A stretch of DNA of 64,000 bases from a virus: the IMG/VR virus record IMGVR_UViG_3300046170_000494, positions 96,001 through 160,000 of that record. The stretch is one strand, 5' to 3'. The translations under genes and the position numbers were made by a program. The notes beneath the pieces are model-generated. The model had not been told where the DNA came from. It worked only from the letters and a program-made list of their open reading frames with translations, and did not search any database. Each line of letters starts with the position of its first letter. The stretch's first letter is position 1. Below, piece after piece: positions 9,859 to 30,400 of this stretch.

Positions 9859-9860
9859 TA

Positions 9861-11714: not shown

Positions 11715-12059
11715 TTAATCCCTATCTAAGTGATGCTTTATGCCGTTTCTTTTTTTACTATATTCCTTGAAATATTTTTGCCTAACAGGGTCGTATCCGA
11801 GTTTATCTTTTCTTTTTTGACTAAGCTCTCTACTTTGATCTATTAAGTCTCCGTAGGAACCTTTTTGGTTTGAAGTTTTTTCTATAAAAGCTTTATTATC
11901 AAAAGGATCTGTACTGGAATCGATTTTTGCTTGAGGGATATTCCACACTCTTTTCCATTTTACGCTTTTTTCATCTACAAAAACATGATCTTCATTCATT
12001 CCTTGTATTAAGTCTATCGTCTCCCCTGTTTCTGGGTGTTCGTATGTATATAGTGGCAT
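11715..12059 (-). CDS. FmdB-like small protein, cysteine-less variant
   Basis: MPLYTYEHPETGETIDLIQGMNE follows the MPxYxYxCxxCG FmdB pattern with CxxC replaced. Confidence 0.6.
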   Translation of the reverse strand: MPLYTYEHPETGETIDLIQGMNEDHVFVDEKSVKWKRVWNIPQAKIDSSTDPFDNKAFIEKTSNQKGSYGDLIDQSRELSQKRKDKLGYDPVRQKYFKEYSKKRNGIKHHLDRD

Positions 12060-13114
12060 TATTCTAATATCCTATCTAAAGTATTTTTATATGTAAATTT
12101 ATCTTTTAGTTTTTCTCCCTCTGTATTTAATGATTTACATTTTGATTCAGCTAGATTCATTGCTTCTATAAACTCTTCTTCATTGAATGTATATATGTGC
12201 CCTTGATTAAAATCAGAACCTTTTTTGAAAAATATATTATCATATACTTCTTCTTTGCCGTCAGGCTCTATTAAAATAGAGTTGTCTTTGTTTGCCCAAT
12301 CTTTATGGCTGGTTGAGTTTAACACTATACTCCATTTGCCTAAGCATGTTGCATTGAAGGAAGGTAGATTCCAGCCTTCAGCACCACTCATTCCCCCCAA
12401 GTCAATATCTATTGAATTAAGAAAATCATTTACTTGCGAGTTTTTAGGTAAAAACGGTAGGAAGTTAATGTTTCCGTAGCTTTTGCCTTCAAGAATATTC
12501 CTGATGGAGGCCTCCATTTGATCTTTCTTGAAAAAGGGGTTTGTGATGCAACATGTTAACTGGTAATTATAGTTGTTGCCATATTTCTTTATCCATGCTC
12601 TAATTATTTTTTGAGTATGTTTCCTTTTCTCTAATTTGCCCATCAAACCAAAATGGATTTTATTATTTAAATATTCTTTTCCTGTTTTATGAAATGAAGT
12701 ATCGAATCCTAAGGGGGCGAAATGACTTTCATTAAAATGCGATTTAGCAAAAGAACTGCTAAATACTAATTTATCTTGAAGTTCTGCTATTCTGCTCTCG
12801 GCTTCTGTCGGTGAATCTAATTCGTAAAAAGTATAAAGTATTTGCCTTTTTGTTATTCTATTCTCTGCCCCATTTAGGTGCCACATTTGTAATGTAGTTG
12901 AATTTTTATCTAGTTTACTATATCTTGAGTTAACTCCATCCTCAATCCACTTCTTGAAGCTTTGGTCTTGAACCTGAAAAGAGCTTACATCTATATTTCC
13001 TGTGGGGAAGATGGACACATCATAATTTTCATTATACAATTCTTTTAGTAGATTAAATGATACATTACCGAAAGATAATGAATTTAGTGGGCCTTTGAAT
13101 ATAATTTTTTTCAT
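12059..13114 (-). CDS. GT4-family (GT-B) glycosyltransferase
   Basis: APLGFDTSF, FGLMGKLEKRKHTQKII, SGAEGWNLPSFNATCLGK. Confidence 0.8.
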   Translation of the reverse strand: MKKIIFKGPLNSLSFGNVSFNLLKELYNENYDVSIFPTGNIDVSSFQVQDQSFKKWIEDGVNSRYSKLDKNSTTLQMWHLNGAENRITKRQILYTFYELDSPTEAESRIAELQDKLVFSSSFAKSHFNESHFAPLGFDTSFHKTGKEYLNNKIHFGLMGKLEKRKHTQKIIRAWIKKYGNNYNYQLTCCITNPFFKKDQMEASIRNILEGKSYGNINFLPFLPKNSQVNDFLNSIDIDLGGMSGAEGWNLPSFNATCLGKWSIVLNSTSHKDWANKDNSILIEPDGKEEVYDNIFFKKGSDFNQGHIYTFNEEEFIEAMNLAESKCKSLNTEGEKLKDKFTYKNTLDRILE

Positions 13115-13497
13115 TAAAAAGGGATATCTGAGAATTCGTCTTCTTCTTCTTGTGTGTCGTTTTCTTTTTCTGAAGGATTATCGTTAGAACTCTCATTATT
13201 TCCACTTAAAAAAGTAACTATATCTGCAATGCAGAAAATTTTGTTTCTAGTTTGCCCTTCTGAGTTTTTCCATGAATTTAAGTGAAGCCTTCCGTCTACC
13301 ATTACTTTCCTGCCTTTACTAAGAAATTTTGCGCAATTATCCGCAGTTTTATTCCATGCCTCTACGTCCATATATAGAACATTATCTGATGGTCTGTTAT
13401 TTATGGCTATAGTGAATACGCAAACCTTCTTTCCGGTTTTAGTTTCTTTTACCTCTGGATCTTTTGTTAAGTTACCTAATCCTATAAATCTATTCAA
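13114..13497 (-). CDS. ssb: single-stranded DNA-binding protein (OB fold)
   Basis: MNRFIGLGNLTKDPE...DVEAWNKTADNCAKFLSKGRKVMVDGRL and acidic tail ending DIPF. Confidence 0.95.
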   Translation of the reverse strand: MNRFIGLGNLTKDPEVKETKTGKKVCVFTIAINNRPSDNVLYMDVEAWNKTADNCAKFLSKGRKVMVDGRLHLNSWKNSEGQTRNKIFCIADIVTFLSGNNESSNDNPSEKENDTQEEEDEFSDIPF

Positions 13498-14101
13498 AAT
13501 TAAATTCTCCTTTCAGTTCGTTTTGTATGTCTTTTATTGCTGAGTTATGTATATTAATGCATCCTTGGATACTCAGATTTAATGAATCTCCTATATTTTT
13601 CCAAGGCATTACTTTGTTTTTATTTCCTTCTATGTATCTCATGTTAAATATTTTTTCGACTCTTTTATCTGGGTGGGAACCTATGAGGTTAAGAACTTTA
13701 TTGAAAATATCTTTTTTAATTGAATTGGCGATATCGTTAGATTCCTTAGATTCTTGATCTGACATGTTCTCTATATACTCTGATTGAAATACTGGGCGCC
13801 TCTTGTTTCTGTTGTAAGTATTTAAGCAATTCCATTTAGTTTCGTTTCCTAGATACGTACTAAATTTCGCACCTTTGCTTTCATCATACTTTAGTGCTGC
13901 GGAGAAAATTTTATACTCCTTATCGTTGATTAAGTCTTCTTTGTCTATAAATGGATTATCCTTCGTTGAGTAAGCATTAACCATATCAATATATATTCCG
14001 CTATGTCTTTCTACTAATTCATTTAAACTAGCCTCAATATCAGTCCTATTTTTGATATTATTAATAAGCTCTAGGTCTGTGTGATTATTAAAAAAGTTCA
14101 T
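13490..14101 (-). CDS. sigma-70-family RNA polymerase sigma factor (regions 2 and 4)
   Basis: DLIN...IFSAALKYDESKGAKFSTYLGNETKW (region 2); FNMRY...WKNIGDSLNLSIQGCINIHNSAI (region 4 HTH). Confidence 0.85.
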   Translation of the reverse strand: MNFFNNHTDLELINNIKNRTDIEASLNELVERHSGIYIDMVNAYSTKDNPFIDKEDLINDKEYKIFSAALKYDESKGAKFSTYLGNETKWNCLNTYNRNKRRPVFQSEYIENMSDQESKESNDIANSIKKDIFNKVLNLIGSHPDKRVEKIFNMRYIEGNKNKVMPWKNIGDSLNLSIQGCINIHNSAIKDIQNELKGEFNFE

Positions 14102-14941: not shown

Positions 14942-14976
14942 AGAACAAGTATAGATGATAATTCAGTAAAAGTCAA
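14942..14976 (-). promoter_or_regulatory. sigma70-type promoter TTGACT-17bp-TATACT, leaderless
   Basis: -35 at 14976-14971, -10 at 14953-14948, ATG at 14941 after 6 nt. Confidence 0.8.
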
Positions 14977-15078: not shown

Positions 15079-15114
15079 TTGACAAAAGTCGTTAATTAGT
15101 TTAAGATCTACCGA
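15079..15114 (+). promoter_or_regulatory. sigma70-type promoter TTGACA-17bp-TAAGAT, leaderless
   Basis: -35 at 15079-15084, -10 at 15102-15107, ATG at 15115 after 7 nt; no Shine-Dalgarno. Confidence 0.8.
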
Positions 15115-15438
15115 ATGAAAAAATTCATCCAAATACCATTAGCTATTCAAGAAGATATTATTTCGGGAAATTTAATTGGCAACGATCTAGTTGTTTATTC
15201 CTACCTTGTTGATAAGGCAGGGCATGGTAAGCCCATATATTTTTCCAACAACAAGATAGCTGGTGAATTAGGTGGGATGTCTTATGGTAAAATATCGGCA
15301 AGCCTAAATAGGCTTCATAAGGCTAAACATATTTTAAGAAAAAAAACAGCAGGGAACACAATGACGCAACTAAAGACTGTTGTAATAAATTCTAAAAACA
15401 TTTTAATCAAAGGGAGACAGCATGAAGATATCTGTTAG
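15115..15438 (+). CDS. winged helix-turn-helix DNA-binding protein
   Basis: DLVVYSYL...YFSNNKIAGELGGMSYGKISASLNRLHKAKHI, as in phage HTH/replication-initiator N-domains. Confidence 0.75.
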   Translation: MKKFIQIPLAIQEDIISGNLIGNDLVVYSYLVDKAGHGKPIYFSNNKIAGELGGMSYGKISASLNRLHKAKHILRKKTAGNTMTQLKTVVINSKNILIKGRQHEDIC

Positions 15439-16375
15439 AATGGAAGGGGGTCTAGGTGATCATTTCGCCGCTAATAGATTTATACCTGCGATTAAAGAAT
15501 ATCACCCTGGATGTAAAATAGACTTATGGTCAGACACAGAAGGTAACTCAATACAGTCAGACATACTTAGAGAAATATGGCCAGACCATTTTAATGATGT
15601 TTTTGTTTTAGAAAAAAAGAAATATAAAAATTTTCGAATAAAATCATCAAATTTCCCAGAAGAAGATTATAGGGGGTCAATTAAAAATGTGCGATCCAAT
15701 GATATAAAATTAATGAAAGGAGCTTATGATAAGTTCTACGATTTACATATCGATTCTCTAGATTGGTTAAATCACGATTATGATTGGTTTAAATATTTTA
15801 ATGTATTCCCAAGACCTACCACCAGCTTAACTCAAAACATAGAGTTGCCTTTTGAAAAATTTATTTTAGCGCACCTTTATGCAAGAGATGATGCAGACTC
15901 AAATATGGAGGATTGGTATATCAAGAGGTTAATTAATGACGTAACAAAAGATTTTAATTTAATAATTCTTTATGATAACGATTCAAAGCATAAATACGAA
16001 GATTTCTTTGGATCAAAAAATCCTAAATTACATTTAATTCACGCAGATCTAAGGCAAATATTTTATTTAGCAAGTAAATGCACAGCTATGTTTGGTATTG
16101 ATTCGGGAATACGATACATTCCGTATCATTTTGGCAAACCTACATTTACTTTCTCAAAATATTGTCAAAAATATGGAACCGTTCAATATTCTTATTTAAT
16201 CAGATGGTTATTTAATGAAAGATATGTTTTCCCTTTACATTATGACGTTAGTAGCGCAAGTCAGATAATTAAAAATATGCTCGTAAACCCAGCTTATAAA
16301 CTTTACCCATTCTTACTTGATGACATTGAGAGTTTAGTTGCTCAGAGAGACATAACGGAATATATAACAGAATGA
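15422..16375 (+). CDS. GT9-family (heptosyltransferase-like) glycosyltransferase
   Basis: EGGLGDHF...IKEYHPGCKIDLW; MFGIDSGIRYIPYHFGKPTFTF. Confidence 0.75.
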   Translation: MKISVRMEGGLGDHFAANRFIPAIKEYHPGCKIDLWSDTEGNSIQSDILREIWPDHFNDVFVLEKKKYKNFRIKSSNFPEEDYRGSIKNVRSNDIKLMKGAYDKFYDLHIDSLDWLNHDYDWFKYFNVFPRPTTSLTQNIELPFEKFILAHLYARDDADSNMEDWYIKRLINDVTKDFNLIILYDNDSKHKYEDFFGSKNPKLHLIHADLRQIFYLASKCTAMFGIDSGIRYIPYHFGKPTFTFSKYCQKYGTVQYSYLIRWLFNERYVFPLHYDVSSASQIIKNMLVNPAYKLYPFLLDDIESLVAQRDITEYITE

Positions 16376-17142
16376 AAACAGCATTACTTTTTAGTGGAAA
16401 ATTAGGAGACTGGACAGAATGTTCTGAGTCTATCACTGAAAATATTATAAAACCCCTAAAGCCTGACATCTTTTTTGCTACATGGAGCACAGAGAATTAC
16501 CCGGATTTCTATAATTACTACAAACCTAAAAAGTTTACAATTTCAGGAAATGAAGATCTAAAGCTATTTGATTTACACAAACACCCAGTAAAGCCAAGCA
16601 AAGGTTTACTACCAATGCTCTTTAATATGAAAGCTGTTTATAATTTATTTTGTAATCAAAAAACTAAATACGATCTAGTAATCAGGTTAAGACCAGATAT
16701 TCAAATATTAGAGGAAATTAAAAAACATGAAATAAAAGATTGTATTAAAAATAAATTCATAAGATTACCTTTATTTGAAAGTGATAATATTTACAACCAT
16801 GAAGAAGAAATAAAAAAAGAGTTCAGTTTTAGTTTTATATACGACAAAGCCTCACTACCAAATCAAATCAATGACCAATTTGCGATAGGATCTCCTGATG
16901 AAATTAAAAAATATATGAATTGTTTAGATTATTACGTTAATGCAATTAACATTCTTTGGAATGAAGGGTATCCAGAATACATGATCAAGGTCCCTGAATC
17001 AGTAATAACTATATGTTTAAATATGCAGAACTGCAAATACAAACAGTTAACAGGAACAAATTCTTTTGGAAACATAAACACAATCCTGTGCAAAGATGGT
17101 AAAAAATGGAGAAATCAAGGCCATAACTCAGTATCAGTTTAA
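16372..17142 (+). CDS. putative glycan-biosynthesis protein (glycosyltransferase-like)
   Basis: MKTALLFSG...DIFFATW...YDLVIRLRPDI...NDQFAIGS pattern seen in glycan loci; mid-operon position. Confidence 0.55.
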   Translation: MKTALLFSGKLGDWTECSESITENIIKPLKPDIFFATWSTENYPDFYNYYKPKKFTISGNEDLKLFDLHKHPVKPSKGLLPMLFNMKAVYNLFCNQKTKYDLVIRLRPDIQILEEIKKHEIKDCIKNKFIRLPLFESDNIYNHEEEIKKEFSFSFIYDKASLPNQINDQFAIGSPDEIKKYMNCLDYYVNAINILWNEGYPEYMIKVPESVITICLNMQNCKYKQLTGTNSFGNINTILCKDGKKWRNQGHNSVSV

Positions 17143-18098
17143 TGAAAATATTTTTTCCAGACATCCATATAACCCTAACAAAAAATTTAAGCAAATCCCT
17201 GCAGCAATTAGGGCATCAAATTGTATTGCCCTCAAAAGACTATAAAATAACAGAGATGCCCCCTCAAAATTGGGCTTGGAACACATCTCATACAAAAGAA
17301 TCTATTAAAAAATTTGATCTAGCATCTAATTCTATTTTTGTAAATAAAGAAGAGCTTTTTGATATAAAACCTGATGTTATATTTGTTAGCGCATTCGAGA
17401 ATCAACTTGAGGTTTTAAATGTTATTTGGCCAGAGGCAAAAAAATGGGGAGCTAAATTAGCTTTTTATAGCGGGAATGATTACTGGGATACCGCGTATCC
17501 CTGGGACATAATAGAAAACTATATGCCTGCAGATCAGTTAGCTGCAAATTTATGCCAAAAATACCAAAAACATTACTTTCATTATAGGCCGTGGATAGAT
17601 TACGAAATGTTTTCTTTCAAGGGTGTCTCAAGCGGAAATAAGATAGGTTCCTATATCTGTGACTACAAGAAAAACTTTCCTCAAGATTATGATTGTTACA
17701 AACAAATATTAAATGCACATTCAGCAGAATATATATTATGTGAAGATAAAACAAAGCAACAAACAGCAGATATTATGCATGACACAATTTCTACATTACA
17801 TATAAAAAGATTAGAAGGTTATGGTTTCGCAATCATTGAAAGTATGGCCAGAGGTAGGCCTGTATTTTTCTGGGAACCGCTAACTCAAGGAAAAAGTTAT
17901 CTACAGTGGTTAGAACTAGGTGTCACTGGTTTTACATTTAGAGATATTGGGGATTACGTATCCCAACAAAACTTTTTAATATCTAATAATGACTTCAGGC
18001 ATCAAGTACAAACAGAATGCGCTAAAAGAATAAGAGACATTATAAATAATGAAGAACAAAATTTAAAATTAAAGTTTTTCCTAGACAATCTTGTATGA
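17142..18098 (+). CDS. GT4-like (GT-B) glycosyltransferase
   Basis: HIKRLEGYGFAIIESMARGRPV donor-binding motif. Confidence 0.75.
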   Translation: MKIFFPDIHITLTKNLSKSLQQLGHQIVLPSKDYKITEMPPQNWAWNTSHTKESIKKFDLASNSIFVNKEELFDIKPDVIFVSAFENQLEVLNVIWPEAKKWGAKLAFYSGNDYWDTAYPWDIIENYMPADQLAANLCQKYQKHYFHYRPWIDYEMFSFKGVSSGNKIGSYICDYKKNFPQDYDCYKQILNAHSAEYILCEDKTKQQTADIMHDTISTLHIKRLEGYGFAIIESMARGRPVFFWEPLTQGKSYLQWLELGVTGFTFRDIGDYVSQQNFLISNNDFRHQVQTECAKRIRDIINNEEQNLKLKFFLDNLV

Positions 18099-18799
18099 AA
18101 TTAAATGATTTATTTGATTGCGTTTATTATATCAATTTAAATAAACGGGTTGATAGAAAAAATAAATTCTGGCAACTAAATAAAAATATTCTAGACGTAG
18201 AGCGGACAATAAGAATTACCGCATTTGACGCATCAAATCAAAAAAATAATACTGATTTTACGTCAATCATAAACGCCAGAACAGCAATTTCACTAAGTTA
18301 TACGCAACCATTCTTACATGCAGTAAAAAATAATTTTAATCAGATATTAATTTTCGAAGACGATGCAGAACCCTTTTTTACAGACGCATCCTTAATAAAT
18401 AAGTATCTAACTGATGCGAACGAATTAAATTATGAAATCATGTTTTTAGGCGGCACAGTACAATCTCCACTTGACAAAGCTTCCGCGAATCTATTTAATT
18501 TAAAAGGCAACATTTTAGCTACCCAAGCGGTATGTTTTAATAATAGAAATAGTATTTTTAATCAATTCAACCAATTCCCGTCAAGTTTCGAGAATATGAG
18601 AAATTTCTTACTTTTAAACAACGGATGTTGCATGGACACGATTATAGGTAAAAAAATGACACAACAAAGAACATCTTTCGTTACAGATAAATTATTATTC
18701 GGTCAGTACGAAAGCTTTTCGGATATTGAAGCAGAAACGACATCTTACAATAAAGATATGATAAATAGATTCCTTAAATTCGCAAATAATCAAATTTAA
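18095..18799 (+). CDS. GT25-family glycosyltransferase
   Basis: FDCVYYINLNKRVDRK, ILIFEDDA, IMFLGG. Confidence 0.8.
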   Translation: MKLNDLFDCVYYINLNKRVDRKNKFWQLNKNILDVERTIRITAFDASNQKNNTDFTSIINARTAISLSYTQPFLHAVKNNFNQILIFEDDAEPFFTDASLINKYLTDANELNYEIMFLGGTVQSPLDKASANLFNLKGNILATQAVCFNNRNSIFNQFNQFPSSFENMRNFLLLNNGCCMDTIIGKKMTQQRTSFVTDKLLFGQYESFSDIEAETTSYNKDMINRFLKFANNQI

Positions 18800-18826
18800 T
18801 AAAATATCAGAAAATAATACCAAAGC

Positions 18827-19585
18827 ATGAATAAAGATCAACTATTTCACGATTTACCAGAAATACCCAAGAAAATTCACGTAACATGGAGAAACAAGAA
18901 TATACTTGATTTAAATTTTTCGATTATCAGGCATGGAATCAGAAATTTAAGAGACTTAAACCTAGATTACAAGTTCGAGATCAGTGATAACACTGATGTT
19001 AATGATTATATAAAAAAAAATATTAGCGCTAAAGATTTTGATCTAATAAAACATAAGAAAATGGTCGAAAAATCAGATCTTTGGCGTTTACTAAAAATAT
19101 ATAACGAAGGAGGAGTTTATACAGACATAGATAGATTCTGTAATCAATCATTATGTAAAATTATTAAACCAGAAGTAAAATGCGTCTTACCTATGTATCA
19201 AAATATAGACTTCTCTCAAGATATCATGATAAGTTCGCCAGGAAACCCAATACATAAAAGAGCTATTGATCTCAATTTAGAAAGAAGGAGGCATGGTTGT
19301 GTAGATATTTTATCTCTAGCACCAATAACATACTTCCATGCAGCAACCGAAGTTTTATTAGGAGAGCAATTAGCTAGATGGCCGAGCAAAGAAAATATAA
19401 ATAAGTTAAACTCAATCATCAATAGATCTAAATATCTACAGTCCTGCACAGAAAACCCTCCGTTTAATACGTTCACCTATCAAGGTCCCCCCATATTCAA
19501 TGATAAAATGTCTTTCTATCACTCGCAAGAGGTTAATCACTGGACATTTAATTATAACGATAATACAGAAATTAAATACGAATGA
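18827..19585 (+). CDS. GT32-family (DXD) glycosyltransferase
   Basis: IPKKIHVTW, SDLWRLLKIYNEGGVYTDID. Confidence 0.85.
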   Translation: MNKDQLFHDLPEIPKKIHVTWRNKNILDLNFSIIRHGIRNLRDLNLDYKFEISDNTDVNDYIKKNISAKDFDLIKHKKMVEKSDLWRLLKIYNEGGVYTDIDRFCNQSLCKIIKPEVKCVLPMYQNIDFSQDIMISSPGNPIHKRAIDLNLERRRHGCVDILSLAPITYFHAATEVLLGEQLARWPSKENINKLNSIINRSKYLQSCTENPPFNTFTYQGPPIFNDKMSFYHSQEVNHWTFNYNDNTEIKYE

Positions 19586-20958
19586 TTAAATTAATTATAT
19601 TTGATTTAGACGGAGTATTAGTTGAGTCGCGCGAATTACATTACATTGCTCTTAACAAAGCTCTCGCTGAAATAGGTGATCAATATACAATTAGCAAAGA
19701 AGAGCATCTTTGTAAGTATGACGCATTAACAACAACTCAAAAATTAAAAAAGTTAACCGCCGAAAAAAATCTTCCAGAAAAATACCACAACAGGGTATGG
19801 GAGCTAAAACAACAAAAAACTCTACAAGAAATAGATCAATATAAACCCGACTACAGAATAATAGATATTCTTAAAAAATTAAAATCACAAAACTACAAAA
19901 TTGCATGCGCAACAAATTCAATAAGAGAGACTTCAAAATTAATGTTAATAAGAAAAGGTTTTTTTGATTACATAGATTTTCTATATTCTAATGAAGATGT
20001 AAATAACCCAAAACCTAATGCCGAGATTTACATGAGATGCATGTTGAAGTGCGGAGTTAATCCAGATGAAACAGTAATAATTGAAGATTCTCATATAGGC
20101 AGGAAAGGCGCAATAAGGAGCGGAGGTTATTTGTGCGCTGTTAAAAACTCTAAAGACTTGACATTTACCAAACTAAATCATACTATAGTTAGCGCAGAAC
20201 AGCGATCTAAAATTTCACCAAAATGGCAAGGAGATAAAATGAACGTACTAATACCAATGGCGGGAGCTGGCTCAAGATTTGAGCAGGCCGGATACACTTT
20301 TCCCAAACCTCTTATTGATGTTAATGGAAAACCTATGATTCAAAGAGTTGTTGAAAACTTAAATATAGATGCAAGGCATATATTCATTGTACAAAAATCT
20401 CATTACGAAAAATATTCATTACAACACACTTTAAATTTAATATCCCCAAATTGCGAAATAGTACAAGTGGAGGGTATGACAGAAGGCGCTGCATGCACAA
20501 CTCTACTAGCTAAAGAATTTATAGATAATGACGAACCACTTATTCTTGCAAATTCAGATCAATATGTAAAATGGGATAGCAATCAATTTATGTACTCATC
20601 TATGGCTGATGATATAGATGGATCTATACTAACATTTCATTCCACTCACCCAAAATGGAGTTATGCAAAATTAAATGAAGATGGATTTGTCACAGAGGTT
20701 GCAGAAAAGAAACCTATTAGCGAACACGCAACAGTAGGAATTTATTTTTTTAAAAAGGGTTCAGATTACATTAGATGCGCAGAAAGCATGATTAAGAAAA
20801 ATATTAGAGTCAATAATGAATTTTATGTATGCCCCGTTTACAACGAAGCCTTACTTGAAGGTGCTAGAGTAAAAACATTTCATATTGATAAAATGTGGGG
20901 ATTAGGCACTCCAGAAGATTTAGATACATTTTTAAAACATGATATTAGTATCTCATAG
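19582..20958 (+). CDS. HAD phosphatase fused to BcbE-like sugar-phosphate nucleotidyltransferase
   Basis: IIFDLDGVL...KP.AEIY...IIEDS (HAD motifs); NVLIPMAGAGSRFEQAGYTFPKPLIDVNGKPMI...WGLGTPEDL (nucleotidyltransferase). Confidence 0.88.
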   Translation: MIKLIIFDLDGVLVESRELHYIALNKALAEIGDQYTISKEEHLCKYDALTTTQKLKKLTAEKNLPEKYHNRVWELKQQKTLQEIDQYKPDYRIIDILKKLKSQNYKIACATNSIRETSKLMLIRKGFFDYIDFLYSNEDVNNPKPNAEIYMRCMLKCGVNPDETVIIEDSHIGRKGAIRSGGYLCAVKNSKDLTFTKLNHTIVSAEQRSKISPKWQGDKMNVLIPMAGAGSRFEQAGYTFPKPLIDVNGKPMIQRVVENLNIDARHIFIVQKSHYEKYSLQHTLNLISPNCEIVQVEGMTEGAACTTLLAKEFIDNDEPLILANSDQYVKWDSNQFMYSSMADDIDGSILTFHSTHPKWSYAKLNEDGFVTEVAEKKPISEHATVGIYFFKKGSDYIRCAESMIKKNIRVNNEFYVCPVYNEALLEGARVKTFHIDKMWGLGTPEDLDTFLKHDISIS

Positions 20959-21361
20959 AGGAAATATTTCTGGGCCAATCCCAGAAAGAGAGAATCATCC
21001 GGACTATATAAAAGAAGCTCTTTCTAAAGGTTACGATGTAGAGGTAGATATATGGGGAGATAAAGAATTATGGCTTGGTCATGACAAGCCTCAATATAAA
21101 TGCTCTGTTAGTTTCCTTATTAATAATTATCAAAAATTATGGATTCATTGTAAAAACTTAATGGCTATAGATATATTATCTGAGTTTAAAGTTTTGAATT
21201 ATTTTTGGCATCAAAACGACGACCACACACTAACTTCTAAAAATTTCATATGGACTTACCCCGGAAAACATGTCTGTAATAAAAGTATTTTAGTAGTAGA
21301 TGACGCTAGAGAATATGCAGGTCCGATTTGTTTTGGTTTGTGTTCTGATTATTTAAAGTGA
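20939..21361 (+). CDS. GDPD/PI-PLC-like phosphodiesterase-fold protein
   Basis: SHRGN...ENHPDYIKEAL..GYDVEVDIW...LWLGHD...WIHCKN. Confidence 0.75.
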   Translation: MILVSHRGNISGPIPERENHPDYIKEALSKGYDVEVDIWGDKELWLGHDKPQYKCSVSFLINNYQKLWIHCKNLMAIDILSEFKVLNYFWHQNDDHTLTSKNFIWTYPGKHVCNKSILVVDDAREYAGPICFGLCSDYLK

Positions 21362-22239
21362 AATTATCTGATGACCATTTTTTAAATTACTTAAGCCATA
21401 ACGAACATTTATCGTTAGAGCAAAGAATACGTTATAAATTTTTAAAAAACTACCTTCGGTCAATGGAGGAGTTTACAGACACCTTTTCTATTATAATACA
21501 AGGGCCTTTAAATGAACGATCAATTAATACTATTCCAGAATATTTAAACTATGGCGAAGTCATAGTTAGCTGCTGGGAAACGGATGATTTTTCCAAACTT
21601 GAAAAATACAAAGATAAAATAAAACTAGTAATAAATAAATATTCCAATATAAATATAAAAAAAAGAAAAACAGGTAGTCAGGCTCCTTGGATTTATCAAA
21701 ATTATACTACATTAAATGGAATAAAAGCTGCGTCTAAATACTTTTGTATTAAAGTTCGCTCGGACGAAAGCTATCCAGTCTTAGATCCATTTTTAAATAA
21801 GCTAAGAGATAATAGAGATACTAAAAATAGCGAAACAGGCTTATATAATCACTACAAAATAGTTACATCTAATATTTATTTTAGATATGATTGGCAAAAT
21901 AAATTTCATCCATCAGACCATATTATAGGAGGAACAAAATCCAGGATGCTTGAATCTTTCAAACTTTCCACAGCGTATTGCCAACAAGAATTAACTAGAT
22001 TCCCTGAGCAACTTATTTGCAAAGCGATTATTAATAGTTATTGGGATCCTTATCTAAAAAAACAAGAATCAGCAACGGATAATGAATCTATAGAGTTAAT
22101 GAAAAAACACTTCGATATAGTTAGAATAAAAAATTTACCTAAACATATATGGACCTCTAGTTATAGGAAATATGATGAGTTATACAGCGAAGAAGATTGG
22201 TGTCATGATATAAATTCTATAGACATAAATACTAGGTGA
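21358..22239 (+). CDS. WavE-like lipopolysaccharide synthesis protein
   Basis: SIIIQGP, VIVSCWE, QNYTTLNGIKAA, IKVRSDE, FHPSDHIIGG; GTG start. Confidence 0.7.
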   Translation: MKLSDDHFLNYLSHNEHLSLEQRIRYKFLKNYLRSMEEFTDTFSIIIQGPLNERSINTIPEYLNYGEVIVSCWETDDFSKLEKYKDKIKLVINKYSNINIKKRKTGSQAPWIYQNYTTLNGIKAASKYFCIKVRSDESYPVLDPFLNKLRDNRDTKNSETGLYNHYKIVTSNIYFRYDWQNKFHPSDHIIGGTKSRMLESFKLSTAYCQQELTRFPEQLICKAIINSYWDPYLKKQESATDNESIELMKKHFDIVRIKNLPKHIWTSSYRKYDELYSEEDWCHDINSIDINTR

Positions 22240-22248
22240 AATAAATAC

Positions 22249-22284
22249 TAGACAAAAATAAATCATGATATATAATCTTTTATC
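22249..22284 (+). promoter_or_regulatory. sigma70-type promoter TAGACA-16bp-TATAAT, near-leaderless
   Basis: -35 at 22249-22254, -10 at 22271-22276, ATG at 22285. Confidence 0.7.
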
Positions 22285-22854
22285 ATGAGCATTTCACTTT
22301 ATAAACCAAACAGTAAAAACACAGGATGCGCCTTTAATTTCAAAATTGGCGTAAACAAAGTAAAAGAGCCGGTAATTTACGCTAGCGCAATTCAACAATA
22401 TAGCTGGGACGATAGAAAAAAAACCGGCAACTTCTCTGGAAACGGTAGTGATCCAGATAAAAGAATTAACCTTAAATTTACAGAATTTGAAATCGGCGGA
22501 ATAATTAGTTCTTTTAAGAATAGAAATGAGTTTTCTACATTTCACGCGTTTGAAGAAAACAAAACATCAATTAAATGTACTCCCTGGGATAAAAAAACTA
22601 AAGTCAAACAAGGAGATAAAGAGGAGTGGATAGTAATCCCGGCATTTGGAATTAATGTTACCAGAAACGGGAATCAGACTTTCAGGATACCATTAGAGCC
22701 TGGAGAAGTGGAAAACCTTCTTGAATTTTTCTCTTTTTACCTTTCTGAACTATATAAACACAGAAGAAGAGAAGAGATTAAAAGACTAAAAGAATCCAAG
22801 GGCGGAGGTAATCAAAATCAATCATCAGAAGATAGCGAACAAGCGCCTTTTTAA
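22285..22854 (+). CDS. putative Whirly/PC4-fold ssDNA-binding protein with SSB-like acidic tail
   Basis: collinear motifs SLYK, QQYSW, FEIGGII, TFH, IPLEPGEV...FSFYL resemble plant Whirly; C-terminus SEDSEQAPF. Confidence 0.6.
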   Translation: MSISLYKPNSKNTGCAFNFKIGVNKVKEPVIYASAIQQYSWDDRKKTGNFSGNGSDPDKRINLKFTEFEIGGIISSFKNRNEFSTFHAFEENKTSIKCTPWDKKTKVKQGDKEEWIVIPAFGINVTRNGNQTFRIPLEPGEVENLLEFFSFYLSELYKHRRREEIKRLKESKGGGNQNQSSEDSEQAPF

Positions 22855-24761
22855 TGAAGAGGAAAAAGGTATTAATTCACAGTAATCACTGTAAAGCTTA
22901 TACAGGCTTTGGAAAAAATACTAAAAATATATTACTACATTTACATAAAACAGGTAAGTATGATTTAGTTGAATTCTCTAATGGAATGAGATGGGGAGAT
23001 CCTTCTTTAAAACTATTACCATGGAAAACCGAAGGTTCTCTACCGAGTGACACAGTCACTTTACAGAAAATGAATCAAGATCAAGCTCTAGCTAGAAATG
23101 CTGGTTATGGAGGTCAAACTATTGATAAAATCATAGAAAGGGAAAAGCCTGATGCTTACATAGGTATTGAAGACATATGGGCTTTCTCTGGATATACCGA
23201 TAAAAAATGGTGGAATAATATAAACTGTATGATATGGACTACTTTAGACAGTTTACCCATATTACCCGAAGCGGTCAAGAATGCTAACAAAATAAAAAAC
23301 TATTACACCTGGTCATCTTTTGCATCTAAAGAATTAAATAGATTAGGACACAAACACGTAGACACATTACATGGAGCTATAGACACCACTAATTTTTTCA
23401 AATTTAAAAGCGATGAAAAAATTAAATTAAGATCAAGACTTAAAATAGATAAAGATGATTTCATTATTGGATTTGTTTTCAGAAATCAGTTAAGGAAAAG
23501 CGTTCCAAACTTATTAGAGGGTTACAAAATATTTTGCGAAAAAAATCCAGAATGTTCGGCTAAATTATTATTACATACTCATTGGAAGGAAGGTTGGGAT
23601 ATACCTAGATTGATAAACGAAAAGGGTATAAACCCTAAAAACGTTTTAACAACATATGTTTGTGCGCATTGTAAAAATTTTGAAATCAAACCTTACGAAG
23701 AAGAAAAGAAAGATTGCGGTTTATGTGGTGCAGAGAAAACCCAAGTAACCCCAAACACTAGGCTAGGAGTTACTGAAGAACAGCTCAATGAGATTTACAA
23801 CCTGATGAATGTTTATTGCCATCCTTTTACCAGCGGAGGTCAAGAAATACCCATACAGGAGGCGAAACTTGTAGAACTTGTAACTTTAGTAACTAATTAT
23901 AGTTGCGGTGAAGATTGCTGCACAGAGGATAGTGCTGGACTACCTCTCAGTTGGTCAGAATATAGAGAGCCAGGCACTCAGTTTATCAAGGCTAGTACAA
24001 ATCCAGAAAGTATCGCAAGTCAGTTAAAAAAAGTTTACAGCATGAAAGACTCTAAACTCAAACTCCTAGGTAAACAAGCTCGCGACTTTGTGATAAAAAA
24101 CTATGGTATAGAGGCTATAGGTAAAAAATTAGAATCTATCATAGATAACATGCCTGAAGTAAATTGGGATTATGATTTTAAACCTATTGAAAAAAACCCA
24201 AACTATATTCCACCTGAAATAAAAAACGACGACGATTTTATAAAAGATATATATAAAAATATATTACAATTAGACGTAAACGAATCAGATGAAGGATTTA
24301 AACACTGGAAGAATAGACTATCCACCGATATGGATAGACATGGAGTATTGAAACATTTTCAACAAGTAGCTAAAAAAGAAAATAAAAAGCAGGAAAAAAT
24401 AGATTTTACTGATATTTTAGATAAAGAAGACGAAGGGAATAGAATTTTATTTTCAATGCCTCAAAGTATAGGTGATATCTACATGTCTACATCTTTATTA
24501 AAAAATATAAAAGAACTATACCCAAACTATAATATTTATTATGCAACAAAGCCTGAATACTTTGAAATATTAGAGGGAAACCCTTATATTCATAAAGTAA
24601 TTCCTTACAGTAAATCTTTAGATAGCTTACCAGCTATGGAAGGACAAGGCAACCATAAAGGTTTTTTTGAGATAGCTTTTCTTCCTTTTATCGGAACTCA
24701 AAAAATGTTAAATTACATTCACAATGGAAAAGATAAAATACAATTCGAATTATGCACTTAA
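22854..24761 (+). CDS. multidomain glycosyltransferase: GT4 with Zn-ribbon insert, DUF4214-like helical domain, GT9 N-terminal domain
   Basis: FRNQLRKSVPNLLEG and LNEIYN...PFTSGGQEIPIQEA (GT4); CAHC...CGLC; FIKDIYKNIL...EGFKHW; PQSIGDIYMST..LKNIKELYP...EILEGNPYI (GT9 N). Confidence 0.8.
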   Translation: MKRKKVLIHSNHCKAYTGFGKNTKNILLHLHKTGKYDLVEFSNGMRWGDPSLKLLPWKTEGSLPSDTVTLQKMNQDQALARNAGYGGQTIDKIIEREKPDAYIGIEDIWAFSGYTDKKWWNNINCMIWTTLDSLPILPEAVKNANKIKNYYTWSSFASKELNRLGHKHVDTLHGAIDTTNFFKFKSDEKIKLRSRLKIDKDDFIIGFVFRNQLRKSVPNLLEGYKIFCEKNPECSAKLLLHTHWKEGWDIPRLINEKGINPKNVLTTYVCAHCKNFEIKPYEEEKKDCGLCGAEKTQVTPNTRLGVTEEQLNEIYNLMNVYCHPFTSGGQEIPIQEAKLVELVTLVTNYSCGEDCCTEDSAGLPLSWSEYREPGTQFIKASTNPESIASQLKKVYSMKDSKLKLLGKQARDFVIKNYGIEAIGKKLESIIDNMPEVNWDYDFKPIEKNPNYIPPEIKNDDDFIKDIYKNILQLDVNESDEGFKHWKNRLSTDMDRHGVLKHFQQVAKKENKKQEKIDFTDILDKEDEGNRILFSMPQSIGDIYMSTSLLKNIKELYPNYNIYYATKPEYFEILEGNPYIHKVIPYSKSLDSLPAMEGQGNHKGFFEIAFLPFIGTQKMLNYIHNGKDKIQFELCT

Positions 24762-25906
24762 TAGAACAATATGCACTTTCATGTGGGGTTAAAATAGATA
24801 AACCCTTTATCGAGACTTCTTTTTTTCCTTCTCCATTTAATAAATATATTACAATTCATGCTAGTAGCGGAATGGATTCGAAAAATTACGACTACTATAA
24901 TGATGTGATAGAAATGATATTGCCCTTTTTAAAAAAAGAAGATATACATTTGGTGCAGATAGGCGGAAAAGACGACATAAAATTGAATCACTGCGAGCAT
25001 TTAAATGGAGCGACAACAATAAGACAAACAGCTTACATAATAGAAAAAAGCTTATTACATTTTGGCAACGATTCATTTTCTACTCACGTAGCGTCTGGTT
25101 TTAATAAAAAAATAGTTTCGCTATACAGCATATTATATAAAGAATGTTGTGGGCCTTATTGGGGAGATAAGAAAAATCATATACTACTAGAGTCTCACAG
25201 AAAAGGTTTAAAACCTTCTTTTTCTAATAAAGAATTACCTAAAATGGTAAACTTAATAAAACCAGAAGATATTGCCAGAGGAGTATTGGATTTATTAGAT
25301 ATACCTCATAATTTAAATAATATAGAAACAATTCATATAGGCTCAGAATACCATCTCCCATCTTTATCTGTTATCCCAAACCACGTCATGCCGGCAACAT
25401 TCGCACAAGGTCAACCAATAAACATTTGGGGGCACGAATTTTTTGACGAATCAAATATAGTAGAATGGGCATATAATAGAAAATGTAATATTTTTCTTAA
25501 TCAACCAATGTCGGTAAAATATTTAGATGTTATCAGACATAATATAAATCAAATTAATTATTTCGTAAATAAAGACACGGACCCAAAATACTTTAAAACA
25601 CTAGAGCGAGGTGGAGTTAAATTTAAACTATTATGCGAAAATGAAAACGATTTAAATGAACTAAGATTACATTTTTTCGATTGGGAAATACATGCCCACA
25701 AAAAAACAACAAAAAAAGATCTTGACAATATAGATAAAGTCTGCGATAATACTCGTTATAAAAGTCAAATTAAAGTAATATCAAACGCAAAAATATATAA
25801 TAGTAAAGCTGCATGGAAAGAAAATGAACAAAACAGCGACACAATTATCGACACACCAGAATTCTGGGAACAAATTAAATCATTTAAACTTTACAACGAA
25901 AAATAA
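24752..25906 (+). CDS. GT9 C-terminal domain plus unknown C-terminal domain
   Basis: HLIEQYAL...YITIHASSG..SKNYDYY...VQIGG...QTAYIIEKSLLHFGNDSFSTHVASGFNKKIVSLY...GPY. Confidence 0.75.
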   Translation: MHLIEQYALSCGVKIDKPFIETSFFPSPFNKYITIHASSGMDSKNYDYYNDVIEMILPFLKKEDIHLVQIGGKDDIKLNHCEHLNGATTIRQTAYIIEKSLLHFGNDSFSTHVASGFNKKIVSLYSILYKECCGPYWGDKKNHILLESHRKGLKPSFSNKELPKMVNLIKPEDIARGVLDLLDIPHNLNNIETIHIGSEYHLPSLSVIPNHVMPATFAQGQPINIWGHEFFDESNIVEWAYNRKCNIFLNQPMSVKYLDVIRHNINQINYFVNKDTDPKYFKTLERGGVKFKLLCENENDLNELRLHFFDWEIHAHKKTTKKDLDNIDKVCDNTRYKSQIKVISNAKIYNSKAAWKENEQNSDTIIDTPEFWEQIKSFKLYNEK

Positions 25907-25907
25907 T

Positions 25908-26729
25908 ATGTCAACAAAAACAACCGCAGATAATTCAGTTACATACGAATCTCAAGCAACCATAAAATCTTCCAAAAAATCTATCCCCGAAAAATATAAA
26001 AATGGCCCAGGTCGTTTTTGTAGAAATGAATTCGGACTACTAAATGAAGTAGATTATGAATTTGATGAAGATGGTTCGGTAAACTGGAGGTCCATGATTA
26101 AAGATGAACATTTATTTCCTAATAAGTCATGGTTTGATTTACGTAAAAAAGATGTACCGCGAACAATTGATGGGCTAAAAGATCATCAGCTACTCATTAA
26201 GCTTTCAGGAATTAAAGAGCTCGCTAAGCTAAGAGGCTTCTCAGATGTATCTTATGAAGTCGTGAAATGTCAAGCAGACCACGTTGCAGTTATTTGTAGG
26301 GTTACATTTTTACCTAATTATGAAACTGGAGGCAAAGCAGTCACTTTTCAAGACATGGCAAATGCAACGTTAAATAATACAAGTAGTTTTGCAACTAAAT
26401 TTTTAGAGACCATTGCATGTAATCGTGCGTTTGTTCGTTGTGTTAGAAATTTTCTCAATGTCCATATTGTAGGCGATGATGAGATAGATAAATCATCCAA
26501 CAATAATAATGCTCAAGTTAATATATCAGCCACATTAACTCCTTATTCAATGATCGAAAACTTAGCTAAGGATAAATTAAATTGCGGAAATTTCGAAGAG
26601 TTTAAAGTAGTACTTCGTGATTGGTGGGCTTCAGGAAAATATAAAAATGATGAAGTCAAAAACTGGAATGATTATTCAGATATTCCTGCAACGCAAGCAA
26701 GAATACTAATGAAAGTCATGAATGAATAA
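25908..26729 (+). CDS. putative Rad52/Sak-like single-strand annealing protein
   Basis: LIKLSGIKELA..RGF, VAVICRVTF, A.A...N...LETIACNRAFVRCVRNFLNVHIVGDDE resembles the annealase ExAExxAxxRA motif. Start moved from 25824 to the ATG at 25908, one base after the upstream stop. Confidence 0.5.
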   Translation: MSTKTTADNSVTYESQATIKSSKKSIPEKYKNGPGRFCRNEFGLLNEVDYEFDEDGSVNWRSMIKDEHLFPNKSWFDLRKKDVPRTIDGLKDHQLLIKLSGIKELAKLRGFSDVSYEVVKCQADHVAVICRVTFLPNYETGGKAVTFQDMANATLNNTSSFATKFLETIACNRAFVRCVRNFLNVHIVGDDEIDKSSNNNNAQVNISATLTPYSMIENLAKDKLNCGNFEEFKVVLRDWWASGKYKNDEVKNWNDYSDIPATQARILMKVMNE

Positions 26730-26795: not shown

Positions 26796-27413
26796 TTAAT
26801 TTTCTAGTTTAGATATTCTTTCCTCTAAAGATTCTATTATTTTTTGTTGTTCTTTTATTGCTCCTACCAATAACGAAGTTACTCGATCGTATTTTACTGC
26901 TTTAAATCCATTTTCTCTAGTAGTTACTATTTCAGGAGCTACCTCTTCAACCTGTTGAGCGATAAGTCCTATATCGTGACCAGAATAAACTTCTTGATTA
27001 TCGTTCCAATTAAATTCTACAGCATCCAAAGATAATACTTTATTTAAAGGATTTTCTATTAATGTGATATCATCTTTTAGTCTTTCGTCGGAAGAAGTAA
27101 ATGCAACAACATCGCCATTTACATGTAAGCCATTAAAACAACCAACATAAAAAGCGTCAGTTAAATCGGCAGTAGTAAAACTTCCTATAATATGAGTATT
27201 AACTTTATCTTCAATTTTATTTCCATATCCTTGTATAATAGAACACCCTCTTGAATTTTTAATAATATTATTTTGTCCGGCTAATATTGCATTAATTCCG
27301 TCATACCCACCTCCAAACAAGCTAGAATCTGACGGAGGCAAAGGGTTATTACTTAAATTTTTCTCAGGACTTCTTAAATCAGGATTGTCAGTGGTTATAT
27401 CAGGAATACTCAT
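26796..27413 (-). CDS. short fibre segment with S74-type intramolecular chaperone domain
   Basis: SSDERLKDDI...GLIAQQVEEVAPEIV...VKYDRVTSLLVGAIKEQQKIIESLEERISKLE; N-part has GxxNxI beta-roll repeats. Confidence 0.9.
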   Translation of the reverse strand: MSIPDITTDNPDLRSPEKNLSNNPLPPSDSSLFGGGYDGINAILAGQNNIIKNSRGCSIIQGYGNKIEDKVNTHIIGSFTTADLTDAFYVGCFNGLHVNGDVVAFTSSDERLKDDITLIENPLNKVLSLDAVEFNWNDNQEVYSGHDIGLIAQQVEEVAPEIVTTRENGFKAVKYDRVTSLLVGAIKEQQKIIESLEERISKLEN

Positions 27414-30400
27414 AATAATATATTATTGTTAGTGTTAGTATCGTTTGAATAATATTTTCCAGCAAAGTCTGGATAGGTAGCTTGATTCCAAATAAACATC
27501 CATGATCTACTTTGGCTCCAAATCCAATGACCTTGACTATTGTAAGAGTTACTAACATAAAAAAATCCGTTATATATGCTATTTGTTAATACTCCAGTGA
27601 CCCAATAATTACTTTCAGCCCCTTCATTAAAAGTAGGTATAACATATAAAGTGACTGGAACATTATTATAAAATGCATATTCAACATTAATGAAAAAACC
27701 TTGCTTCGAAATTTCATCGCCTCTTAATATTTGCTCTTGGATTTGAACTATCGCTCCGAATTTAGAATTATTTATGGTATAATGATAACCACTCGAAGAA
27801 GCTGCACTTGCTATTACAGCGTCAGTACCGTTTCTACCTAAAAGATAGGAGCTTAAAGGAAATCTTTTAGAATCAAGTACAACTTTTCTCTGGCTTGAAT
27901 TATATATATTATCAACATATGAGCCAAAGCTAATAACTGGTGGATCATACTCTATGCTATTATATTTTCCTGCGATTATACTTTGGCTACTACCTCCGTC
28001 AATTGAATTACTAACTCCCGCCCCGATTATATTTCCTCCCGCATTACCACTAACAAACTGAGGCATTTCATTATTATACCCCGCGCCGACAAAAGAAAAG
28101 TTATCTCCAACATTATTATTAAAACCTCCAGCTACTGTAGAGAATCTTCCGGTTATATCATTATATGCTCCACCAATAATCGCAGAAGCTAATCCGTGAT
28201 ATCCGCCATAACCAGTAATAAAATTATCATAACCACCTCCAATGAATGTTGCGTTTTCTCCATCTAAACTATTAAATCCAATACTAGAACCTCCAGCTGC
28301 GGAGTCCAGACCGTTCAATATAAGAGACCCTTTTAATTCTATTCTATTTTCTTGCCCATTAAATCTAATGTAAGAGTCTGAACCACCTATATCAAACTTA
28401 GGATTTGGCAAGCCATTTTCTTTTTCATTACCTATAAAAAATCCCGTAACGCCGTTTCCGTACTCTTTACCAACAGTTTTAATAATTCCGCCATGTCCAA
28501 CATATTGATTATTGGAATTAACATCCCCCTCTCCCATAGTAAGAGTATGAGTGATTGCAGTGTCTTGAGCTAACAATATATCAGTTGCAACCATATCAAA
28601 TTGAGCATCAAACTCTTGCCAATCGTTATTAGAAGAAGAAGGGGTGCTGCTAGTGGTTTCGGCTAAAGCCATCCAATATCCATTGCCATAAAATACTACA
28701 TCCCCTCTTAAAGATTCTTCCGTTGCTCCCTGATAAGTTTTACTTGAATCAAATTCTCCTCTAAAAACTATACCCGCACCCTTATTTCCTTTTCGCCCAT
28801 CAAAACTTAAAGATAGATTTTGTTCAACTGTGAAAGTGCGCACTCCGCCGTCATGATCACGTGTTGTTACATTGTAAGTAACTTTAGCTTTACTATTCGA
28901 TTCGGAGCTCCATCCACTTAATTTTGTTCGAAAGCTCTGATTAACTGGTGGCATAATGGATATAGTACAATTATTAGTTGAGGTTGTTACATAATACTCA
29001 CCATTTTGACTCCCACTTGTTCCTCCATATTCAAGAGAGTCGGTTCCCTCGAATACTGTTAATATATTTTCTGTTGTATTTAAATTCGCAACTGTATTTA
29101 TTTGACTCAATCCACCTTTTTGTCCATTAGCGTCTGTACCTACGGTTATAGTAACAAACTCTTGGCTTTGAAGTATCGTTATGCCATTAGATCCTTCTTT
29201 TAATTTACTAATAGTTATTTTATCTGTGGATTTTTTCACAAACGATGACCCAACATTAAAAGAGTCGTAAGCTTCAACCTCTATGACTGTAGGCAAGTCG
29301 CTGGAAGTGTAAGAGCTTGGAACAGTAAAACCATAAGTGTTATCACGGCTCATATTTTGCACTATAGTGTTATCTCTTTTAAATATAAAATGTGGAGTAT
29401 GATAATAAAAACCTCCAGCTTCAGCACTTACTGTTACCGTGCCGGCATGAGGATTTGAACCTAAAGAATTATATTGAATAGCTTGAGGTTGTGCGGTAAG
29501 ATCAAGAGTTCTTCCAGCAGAACCTTCTTTTATTTTACTAAAAGTATATAATCTCTCAAACTCAATAGGACCAAGATCAGCCCTTGTTGAACCCGCTTTA
29601 TAATGATTATCTTGAAGAGTTATTTTTAAAAAGCCAGTAGTTAAATCATCTGGTAAACTTGTAATTTCTATATTTAATTGATCAGATGAATTTTTAGTAG
29701 CGCTATATGATATACCGCCATCACTTTTCTCTATGCTTTTACAAGAATATGTACCGGTTTGATTAGATCCAGAAAGATATTCATAAGATTGATAACCCTT
29801 CATGAATACAGTATTAGTAGAAAATCCTTGGTAATCAGTACTATGAACTTTATTATTTTCGTCAGAAGGAAATGAAACGTTTTCGTTATCTAAAAATACT
29901 GTATATGAGTCTTTTCCTGGAAGCGATCCATATATAGTTACAAAATCACTAGCAATAACATTAGTATTATATATTCCACTAATTTCAACATGAGCAAGAA
30001 ATGGAGTATCATCATATTCATTAAATTTAAGATCTAAATTATTTATAGTATGACTAGTATTATCTTGTTGATTAGCTATCTCTACTAAATTATCTAAATC
30101 CTTACCAGTAGAAAATATATAATGCAATGAACCATATGTATTATATGGAATAGCTTTTAATGATAGTGTTTTATTATTGTCCTCAAACTCTCTATCGTAA
30201 TTATATTTATAAACTTGTTGAGCAGCATCTAATTCAACATATATAGAAGCTGCGCCGTCTGCAATAAAGTTAACAGAAATTGACCTCTCAGTAGAAGTTT
30301 TTTCTCCAGAAGCAGATATTAAAATTGTATTACATGTATTAGGTAATGTAGAATTAATTATATGATCAAATCCGGTGACACTAAATTCTGCTCTTGCCTG

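Follow-up and report, generated by a model that had tools for sequence, protein, structure and literature searches.

Whirly proteins are treated in the plant literature as plant-specific (PMC9070903, PMC11359715), and the locus described here raises the question of whether a protein of this family, furnished with the C-terminal tail of a bacterial SSB (a protein that binds single-stranded DNA), is also encoded by a phage. The window, by which we mean the whole analysed stretch of 64,000 nt, covers positions 96,001 to 160,000 of the IMG/VR record IMGVR_UViG_3300046170_000494, derives from a large uncultured marine phage, has a GC content of 33.3% and contains 44 open reading frames (ORFs). One of these, at 22285..22854 on the plus strand, starts with ATG and encodes 189 amino acids plus a stop, precisely as an earlier note had placed it; that note, made from the letters of the DNA, read the product as a phage Whirly-type protein with an SSB-like tail. 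Homology at the level of the family, the predicted fold and the conservation of the C-terminal tip all support this reading. As the acidic ...PF docking tail matches that of the phage's ordinary SSB, the protein is probably a second hub on single-stranded DNA (ssDNA), and we assign a probability of roughly 0.7 to the reading that this Whirly homolog with an SSB-type tip is a non-OB ssDNA hub for phage replication or recombination, a reading in which ssDNA binding, a tetrameric state and partners of the tail are all predicted properties.

The ORF is a real, conserved gene of a large viral family. A word-index search with the protein recovered 225 homologs at 90% clustering, with identities down to about 44%, and a profile search carried exhaustively through 1.84 billion cluster representatives yielded 627 clusters (50% identity) at E <= 1e-3, 410 of them at E <= 1e-10. 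A scan of IMG/VR located 378 loci encoding the protein on viral contigs of up to 211 kb. None of the homolog entries listed by the word-index search bears a Pfam label and most are unnamed; a second search of this kind likewise returned unannotated relatives only, and a tblastn search of 50,697 deposited, mostly cultured, phage genomes gave no homolog. In a scan of cellular genomes homologs were encountered only on six contigs of metagenome-assembled genomes (MAGs; L092-L097) from unrelated phyla, assigned to Coraliomargarita, Woesebacteria, Thermodesulfobacteriota, Promethearchaeota, Flavobacteriales and Rickettsiales. These contigs are almost certainly mis-binned phage DNA and provide no evidence of a bacterial Whirly protein or of a host. 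Since the cellular scan yielded nothing beyond them, the family looks essentially viral.

Sequence profile analysis of this family points to the plant Whirly proteins. Twelve of 79 divergent members matched PF08536 (Whirly), with a best E-value of 5.9e-6, and any other Pfam family was matched by at most one of the 79. A profile of these 79 sequences run against the whole PDB recovered six matches (3.7e-5 to 1e-2), all of them plant Whirly proteins, including StWhy2 (3n1h, 3.7e-5), AtWHY2 (4kop, 5.8e-5), p24/PBF-2 (1l3a, 7e-4) and, further, AtWHY1 and AtWHY3 (4koo, 4koq); a profile from the close homologs only matched no PDB entry. For a comparison from the plant side, a search seeded with 70 residues of StWhy2 supplied an alignment of 20 sequences, comprising angiosperm WHY2 only. 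When the phage profile was aligned to this WHY2 profile with hhalign, a probability of 92.7% and an E-value of 4.4e-7 were obtained over 96 columns, with phage residues 56-166 paired with StWhy2 111-218. In the reverse direction the signal is weaker: a hidden Markov model (HMM) of the same plant sequences picked up, at E <= 10, 131 of 313 family members versus 7 of 273 background phage ORFs; its 25 best matches were all family members, and only three matches were individually significant. Given that the signal emerges once the diversity of the family enters the profile, with the single sequence remaining silent, the sequence evidence indicates a homology of the phage family to Whirly (PF08536) that is remote but specific, and recognizable at the family level. 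The profile search by which the earlier note had proposed to check its reading therefore finds plant Whirly with the family profile, though not with the single protein. Among scattered weak Pfam matches, one to PF18352 at 0.0067 in five close homologs was judged to be due to chance.

The earlier note had also set seven motifs of the phage protein collinearly against a Whirly consensus. Five of these seven pairings were reproduced by HMMER and hhalign: LKFTEFEIGGII with plant FALSATEVGSLI, FSTFH with EFFH, SIKCTPW with SIKP/VLKVEPL, FGINVTRN with FISLSV/FFNLSVQN, and phage FRIPLEPGEVENLLEFFSFYL with a plant counterpart of 21 residues. The proposed pairing of QQYSWD with RQYDWS was not recovered, HMMER instead setting plant YDWEK opposite phage DPDK at residues 56-59, and that of SLYK with S(I/V)(Y/F)K at strand 1 is left unsettled because the sequence alignment of the first repeat is unreliable; neither permissive nor global hhalign runs gave a trustworthy alignment of this repeat or of the region of the plant KGKAAL motif. 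The second repeat is covered by the HMMER and hhalign alignments to StWhy2, AtWHY2 and p24. Four of the most conserved phage residues, E69, G71, H87 and E141, coincide with the positions of TE(V/I)G, FFH and AEF in the plant proteins, and therefore favor common descent over convergence on the same fold.

The fold itself was examined with an AlphaFold monomer model built from the 79-sequence alignment, which has a mean predicted local distance difference test score (pLDDT) of 95.1 and a predicted template modelling (pTM) score of 0.85. It contains tandem β-β-β-β-α repeats that form two antiparallel sheets, the arrangement of a type I PC4-like domain. Repeat 1 (residues 1-79, encoded at 22285..22521 on the plus strand; pLDDT about 98) has strands at 2-7, 15-23, 29-37 and 60-65 and a helix at 67-79, with an insert at residues 40-59 before the last strand; its near-invariant positions are YKPNSKN...G14, Q38, W41 and the E69/G71 pair of the TE(I/V)G-like motif. 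Repeat 2 (residues 80-173, 22522..22803 on the same strand) has strands at 83-89, 92-109, 112-127 and 131-137 followed by a long helix at 139-173, and holds H87, the histidine of plant FFH, and E141, the glutamate of plant AEF. In a Foldseek ranking of PDB structures StWhy2, AtWHY1/2/3 and p24 come first, trypanosome MRP1/2 next, and then PUR-α; the superposition on plant Whirly begins at residue 1, with an identity of 17-20%. Structural Z-scores for PUR-α and SsgB are 7.9 and 7.2, respectively. Structure prediction of the monomer, another check that the earlier note had suggested, thus bears out a two-repeat Whirly fold whose best PDB matches are the plant proteins. There was no match of the protein to the OB-fold family PF00436, and its core is a Whirly fold.

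C-terminal to this core lies a tail of the SSB type, encoded at 22804..22851 on the plus strand, which comprises a Gly/Gln/Ser linker (residues 174-181) and the acidic tip EDSEQAPF (182-189); the C-terminus reads ...SSEDSEQAPF and is also given as ...KGGGNQNQSSEDSEQAPF. The pLDDT falls over the last 19 residues, to 77 and then 63 in the last two 10-residue blocks, as is to be expected of a flexible tail. Across 36 close homologs the approximately 25 residues ahead of the end are hypervariable, both in their number and in their sequence, while conservation is at least 90% at P188 and F189 of a terminal (A/V)PF motif. More widely, a PF ending is seen in 152 of 257 full-length family members (APF in 114, VPF in 21, PPF in 7 and IPF in 6), and an acidic stretch with an aromatic end in 62 of 96 full-length representatives of the 50% clusters (65%), as opposed to 5% (11 of 230) of the ORFs in a complete relative under the same definition. 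The tip varies between lineages (...PF, ...NPFG, ...DDIF, ...EDIW and ...GDNW, as well as ...DIF and ...EDW). The SSB-type tail described in the earlier note is accordingly a real and conserved feature of the family.

The same note had reported a canonical OB-fold SSB alongside, and this too is present, as a gene for 127 amino acids at 13114..13497 on the minus strand with family matches (phrog_44, 2.3e-32; PF00436, 2.7e-24) and the ending EEEDEFSDIPF. Exactly two proteins of the window end in PF, namely this SSB and the Whirly-domain protein, and exactly two, again the SSB and the Whirly-domain protein, do so among the 230 ORFs of the complete 184-kb relative G002. A separate 109-aa ORF of that relative (66174-66503, plus strand) ends in an acidic stretch followed by ...DIPEELF and may be a third protein there whose tip resembles that of SSB. 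Comparison of 81 related loci showed that the SSB ends in D(I/V)PF wherever the Whirly-domain protein ends in (A/V/P)PF. In one clade (L051-54, 56, 57 and 59), exemplified by L052 at 7852-11339, the ending of the SSB has become ...EFEF and the Whirly-domain protein is tip-less; three other loci (L067, L070 and L071) are exceptions, having an SSB that ends in ...EVPF and a Whirly-domain protein without a tip. As this co-variation of the two tips amounts to a single event, it is suggestive only.

The replication machinery of the relatives provides a setting for such tips. In five relatives that are complete by CheckV (G002-G006, 184-211 kb) a DnaE-type Pol III alpha of about 870 amino acids and a DnaB-type helicase of about 510 amino acids were found in every case, and neither family A nor family B DNA polymerases were present in any; the replisome of these phages is therefore of the bacterial type, in which SSB tips serve as docking sites. 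A RecA-like protein adjoins the helicase in four of the five and is missing in G005, which belongs to the tip-less clade. In such a setting the Whirly-domain protein would coat the ssDNA that arises in phage replication or recombination, probably as a tetramer by analogy to other Whirly proteins, which bind ssDNA irrespective of its sequence and whose homotetramer (the 'whirligig') is built through the C-terminal helices. The up to four tips of a tetramer could dock on the pocket or pockets that recognize SSB tips and so might recruit replication or recombination proteins to ssDNA covered by the Whirly-domain protein rather than by SSB. The likeliest clients would be the phage Pol III alpha, the DnaB-type helicase, the RecA-like protein and the product of a neighboring gene, g25824 (see below). 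By analogy to plant Whirly, it may in addition protect ssDNA and steer it away from error-prone annealing towards accurate recombination.

The architecture of the locus across the 81 loci places the Whirly gene with genes of DNA metabolism. In a compact clade (L051-L059) g14630, a dNMP kinase, a sigma-like protein, the SSB, g11715, the Whirly-domain protein and g25824 are encoded in this order on one strand, with about 30 nt between the last two genes. In the window the sigma-like gene (13490-14101) lies in the same conserved block as the SSB, and g11715 (11715..12059, minus strand; 114 amino acids), the sole gene between the SSB and Whirly genes in the compact clade, belongs to no family, having no Pfam match and only a weak PHROG match; it is duplicated in L055, L063 and L074. 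A glycosyltransferase/lipopolysaccharide (LPS)-type cassette, which in the window occupies 15115-22239 and 22854-25906 and encodes GT25, GT32-like, HAD-nucleotidyltransferase fusion, WavE-like, GT4-DUF4214 and GT9 proteins, is an insertion that is absent from the compact clade. That the Whirly gene is a part of this glycan-synthesis cassette was considered and rejected, as the compact clade, which lacks the cassette, keeps the SSB, Whirly and g25824 genes together.

The conserved gene g25824 is always found downstream of the Whirly gene. Its ORF is annotated from 25824 on the plus strand, where it overlaps the preceding gene by 82 nt; given that its homologs have 245-280 residues and that the preceding gene has its stop ahead of position 25908, the true start is probably 25908, which gives a product of 273 amino acids (25908..26729). 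The protein is highly conserved, with an invariant core, FLETIACNRAFVRCVRNFL...HIVG.DE, and in its model (pLDDT 81.5) a core at residues 99-183, made of a helix, three strands and a second, long helix, leads through a disordered linker into a C-terminal bundle of four helices. The best PDB matches of this model in Foldseek are human RAD52 (E 0.017, probability 0.89) and Mgm101, and among named language-model clusters Sak (0.89) and Rad52_Rad22 (0.88) lie nearest, both below the reliable level. Searches of Pfam and PHROGs gave nothing or noise, the PDB profile search gave nothing, and PF06378 and PF04098 were undetected in the five complete relatives even at E <= 10. The structural and language-model matches make it a weak candidate, with odds that we put at about even, for an annealing protein of the Rad52 superfamily (Rad52/Sak/Red-β-like). 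If so, its annealing core followed by a helical bundle resembles the layout of RecT/Red-β, proteins that use their C-terminal parts to couple to the SSB tip (PMC13490951).

Several of these observations weigh against an SSB-like Whirly hub. The single protein of the window has no Pfam match at E <= 10, none in PHROGs and none among PDB sequences, and scores an E-value of 2.8 with the plant WHY2 HMM. Its N-terminal region, which reads SLYKPNSKNTGCAF, lacks KGKAAL, with YKPNSKNTG standing in its place; from the KGKAAL region just the lysine K7 (at least 90% conserved) and the invariant G14 remain, in a part where the alignment is unreliable. This motif is needed for ssDNA binding and 24-mer assembly in higher-plant Whirly and is lacking in the Whirly-like proteins of algae and liverworts (PMC9070903). 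The immediate neighbors of the gene in the window are of the glycosyltransferase/LPS type rather than replication genes, and the weakness of the annealing-protein candidate likewise counts on this side. So does the persistence of g25824 next to the Whirly gene in the tip-less clade and in L067/70/71, which implies that the two genes can be linked, by whatever means, without the PF tip. Finally, on structural Z-scores (13.5-14.1) MRP1/2 are statistically tied with plant Whirly, at an identity of 10%.

This last tie bears on the alternative that the protein is an RNA-binding member of the Whirly fold that handles phage transcripts in the manner of ChmC or of trypanosome MRP1/MRP2. We regard it as improbable: the sequence-profile matches are to the ssDNA-binding Whirly proteins of plants only and never to MRP, the identity over the structural alignment is 17-20% with the former as against 10% with the latter, the tail copies the SSB tip and has it in common with the SSB only, and the gene is syntenic with those for the SSB and the dNMP kinase.

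The tip by itself would also be compatible with a decoy or competitor that hijacks or titrates the SSB-interacting enzymes of the host, or with a non-OB cover of ssDNA that evades defenses that sense SSB. Phage SSB is reported to activate several defense systems, among them Retron-Eco8 and DARNA, and the differences in the tip motif between lineages (from ...PF and ...NPFG to ...DIF and ...EDW) are as expected if it tracks the partner pockets of the respective hosts. A chi subunit (PF04364), a possible phage-encoded receptor of the tip, was not found in any of the five complete relatives, and host SSB-binding proteins are therefore plausible targets. Yet the case for a decoy is purely inferential and the phage retains a canonical SSB with a textbook tip that is still open to sensing, so that we hold such a role to be quite improbable.

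The earlier note had given the gene its own early promoter, and a sigma70-type promoter-like element is indeed present at 22249..22276 (plus strand), consisting of TAGACA (-35), a 16-nt spacer and TATAAT (-10), the last ending 8 nt ahead of the ATG; an mRNA initiated from it would be nearly leaderless. It is the best match (11/12) in a 13-kb scan, in which the total of such sites is no more frequent than in shuffled sequence. As the site count equals chance a single match proves little, and conservation is the stronger evidence: the pattern TTGnnn-N16/17-TATAAT occurs within 70 nt upstream of the Whirly gene in 28 of 66 distinct relatives (42%), with differing spacers and flanks, compared with 29 of 463 (6%) other conserved genes from the same loci. 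This recurrence upholds the sigma70-type promoter; that it is early would follow from its class, and early expression of the gene is correspondingly a prediction. Two further promoters of this type head the divergent SSB-containing operon (14948-14976, minus strand) and the glycan operon (15079-15107, plus strand). In all three the -10 element ends 6-8 nt ahead of the start codon, and the transcripts are likely to be near-leaderless. In the compact clade the Whirly gene abuts g11715 without a gap, and is presumably co-transcribed with it. The structural and fiber genes starting at 3792, 6770, 11693, 56024 and 60495 have a different signal, GTGTA, situated 14-15 nt ahead of the start, and no such motif lies upstream of the Whirly gene. 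A role in transcription, as a regulator akin to PBF-2/p24 or PC4 that would bind melted promoter DNA or open it together with the phage sigma-like factor, is very improbable. In its favor, Whirly first came to light as the transcription factor PBF-2 (PMC9070903), PC4-like proteins act as coactivators (PMC7549692) and the sigma-like gene shares the conserved block. Against it, transcription factors are not known to make use of an acidic PF tip of the SSB type, it is with the presence of SSB and not with any visible promoter motif that the family co-varies, and no sequence-specific DNA element was identified.

Elsewhere in the window three giant ORFs of 2530, 1728 and 2299 amino acids (27410-35002, 35007-40193 and 46918-53817, all on the minus strand) lie downstream of a gene for a 204-aa protein with an endosialidase-chaperone (Peptidase_S74) domain, and presumably encode fiber or tail proteins. 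Two tandem DUF2827 paralogs (E 1e-71 and 1e-57; 1616-3792, minus strand) adjoin a gene for a protein with a GT32-like domain.

Beyond plants, the Whirly fold is known from trypanosomes (MRP1/2), PUR-α and the jumbo-phage protein ChmC (PMC11077065), as well as from the sensor domains of Shedu (bioRxiv 10.1101/2023.08.10.552793). Our literature search found no paper on PF08536 proteins in viruses or on the combination of a Whirly domain with an SSB tip. At least one viral protein already bears an automatic Whirly name in UniProt, and no paper describing it was found. This protein, A0A6J5NR37 ('Whirly transcription factor [uncultured Caudovirales phage]'), is the best structural match in BFVD (E 2.7e-5, template modelling (TM) score 0.67 by target); it has 141 amino acids and is 17% identical to the phage protein described here.

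What the present family adds is a large, diverse and purely viral group with homology in both sequence and structure to the 'plant-specific' Whirly proteins, in a context of DNA metabolism and with the docking tip for partners by which bacterial SSB hubs are defined. If the biochemistry holds, it would join the OB fold and the PC4-like dimers as a third structural way of building a phage SSB with a tip, and would naturally put to the test whether the SSB tip is a module portable to an unrelated ssDNA-binding core. The matched tips of SSB and Whirly, together with a possible annealing protein, could matter for recombineering toolkits in which compatibility with the SSB tip is required (PMC13490951). 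The family would also offer a concrete outgroup for the origin of organellar Whirly and of its link to RAD52-like proteins. In plant mitochondria WHY2 is found together with the RAD52-like ODB1 (PMC9070903), an association that the Whirly-g25824 gene pair would echo if g25824 is an annealing protein. That organellar Whirly, perhaps with its RAD52-like partner, descends from a phage module of Whirly and annealing protein, and that the phage Whirly is a full alternative to the OB fold in a tip-bearing SSB hub, is a proposal that we consider doubtful at present; if the reading of its origin were true, Whirly would not be a plant invention, having been acquired like other phage-derived proteins of organellar replication.

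Placed beside the known systems, the viral protein differs from the eukaryotic Whirly proteins of plants (WHY1/2/3, StWhy2, p24/PBF-2; PF08536) in having neither a transit peptide nor KGKAAL. Its repeat 1 contains an insert (about residues 43-58), the hairpin at 92-127 is extended and the C-terminal helix is much longer. A further difference is the acidic PF tip of the SSB type, which the plant proteins lack (the aligned end of WHY2 being ...EWDK/R). It is reminiscent of ChmC of the chimalliviruses, a homotetramer that binds ssRNA and ssDNA (PMC11077065), in being phage-encoded and in combining a Whirly-like fold with a disordered C-terminal region. ChmC, however, is built of β3-α repeats, has no detectable sequence similarity to known proteins, prefers RNA and functions in mRNA export, and its tail is N/G-rich and then S/D/E-rich without a PF tip, whereas the present family combines sequence homology to PF08536 with a tip of the SSB type. 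The PC4-like protein of phage T5 (PDB 4bg7) and the bacterial YdbC and SP_0782 belong to the same PC4-like superfamily; the T5 and bacterial PC4-like proteins have been implicated in recombination-dependent replication and ssDNA binding (PMC7549692). They have a single repeat and complete the domain by dimerizing (type II), unlike the tandem-repeat (type I) phage Whirly-domain protein, and chains of 4bg7, YdbC and SP_0782 were not among the structural matches listed. With the bacterial and phage OB-fold SSBs (PF00436; E. coli ...DDDIPF) the protein shares an overall layout in which a folded ssDNA-binding core is followed by a flexible, low-complexity linker and by an acidic tip with hydrophobic-Pro-Phe as its last residues. 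The core of the SSBs is an OB domain and that of the phage protein a Whirly fold, and in the tip of the latter Ala or Val takes the place of the Ile of SSB; this tip is also less acidic, with three acidic residues in the last eight.
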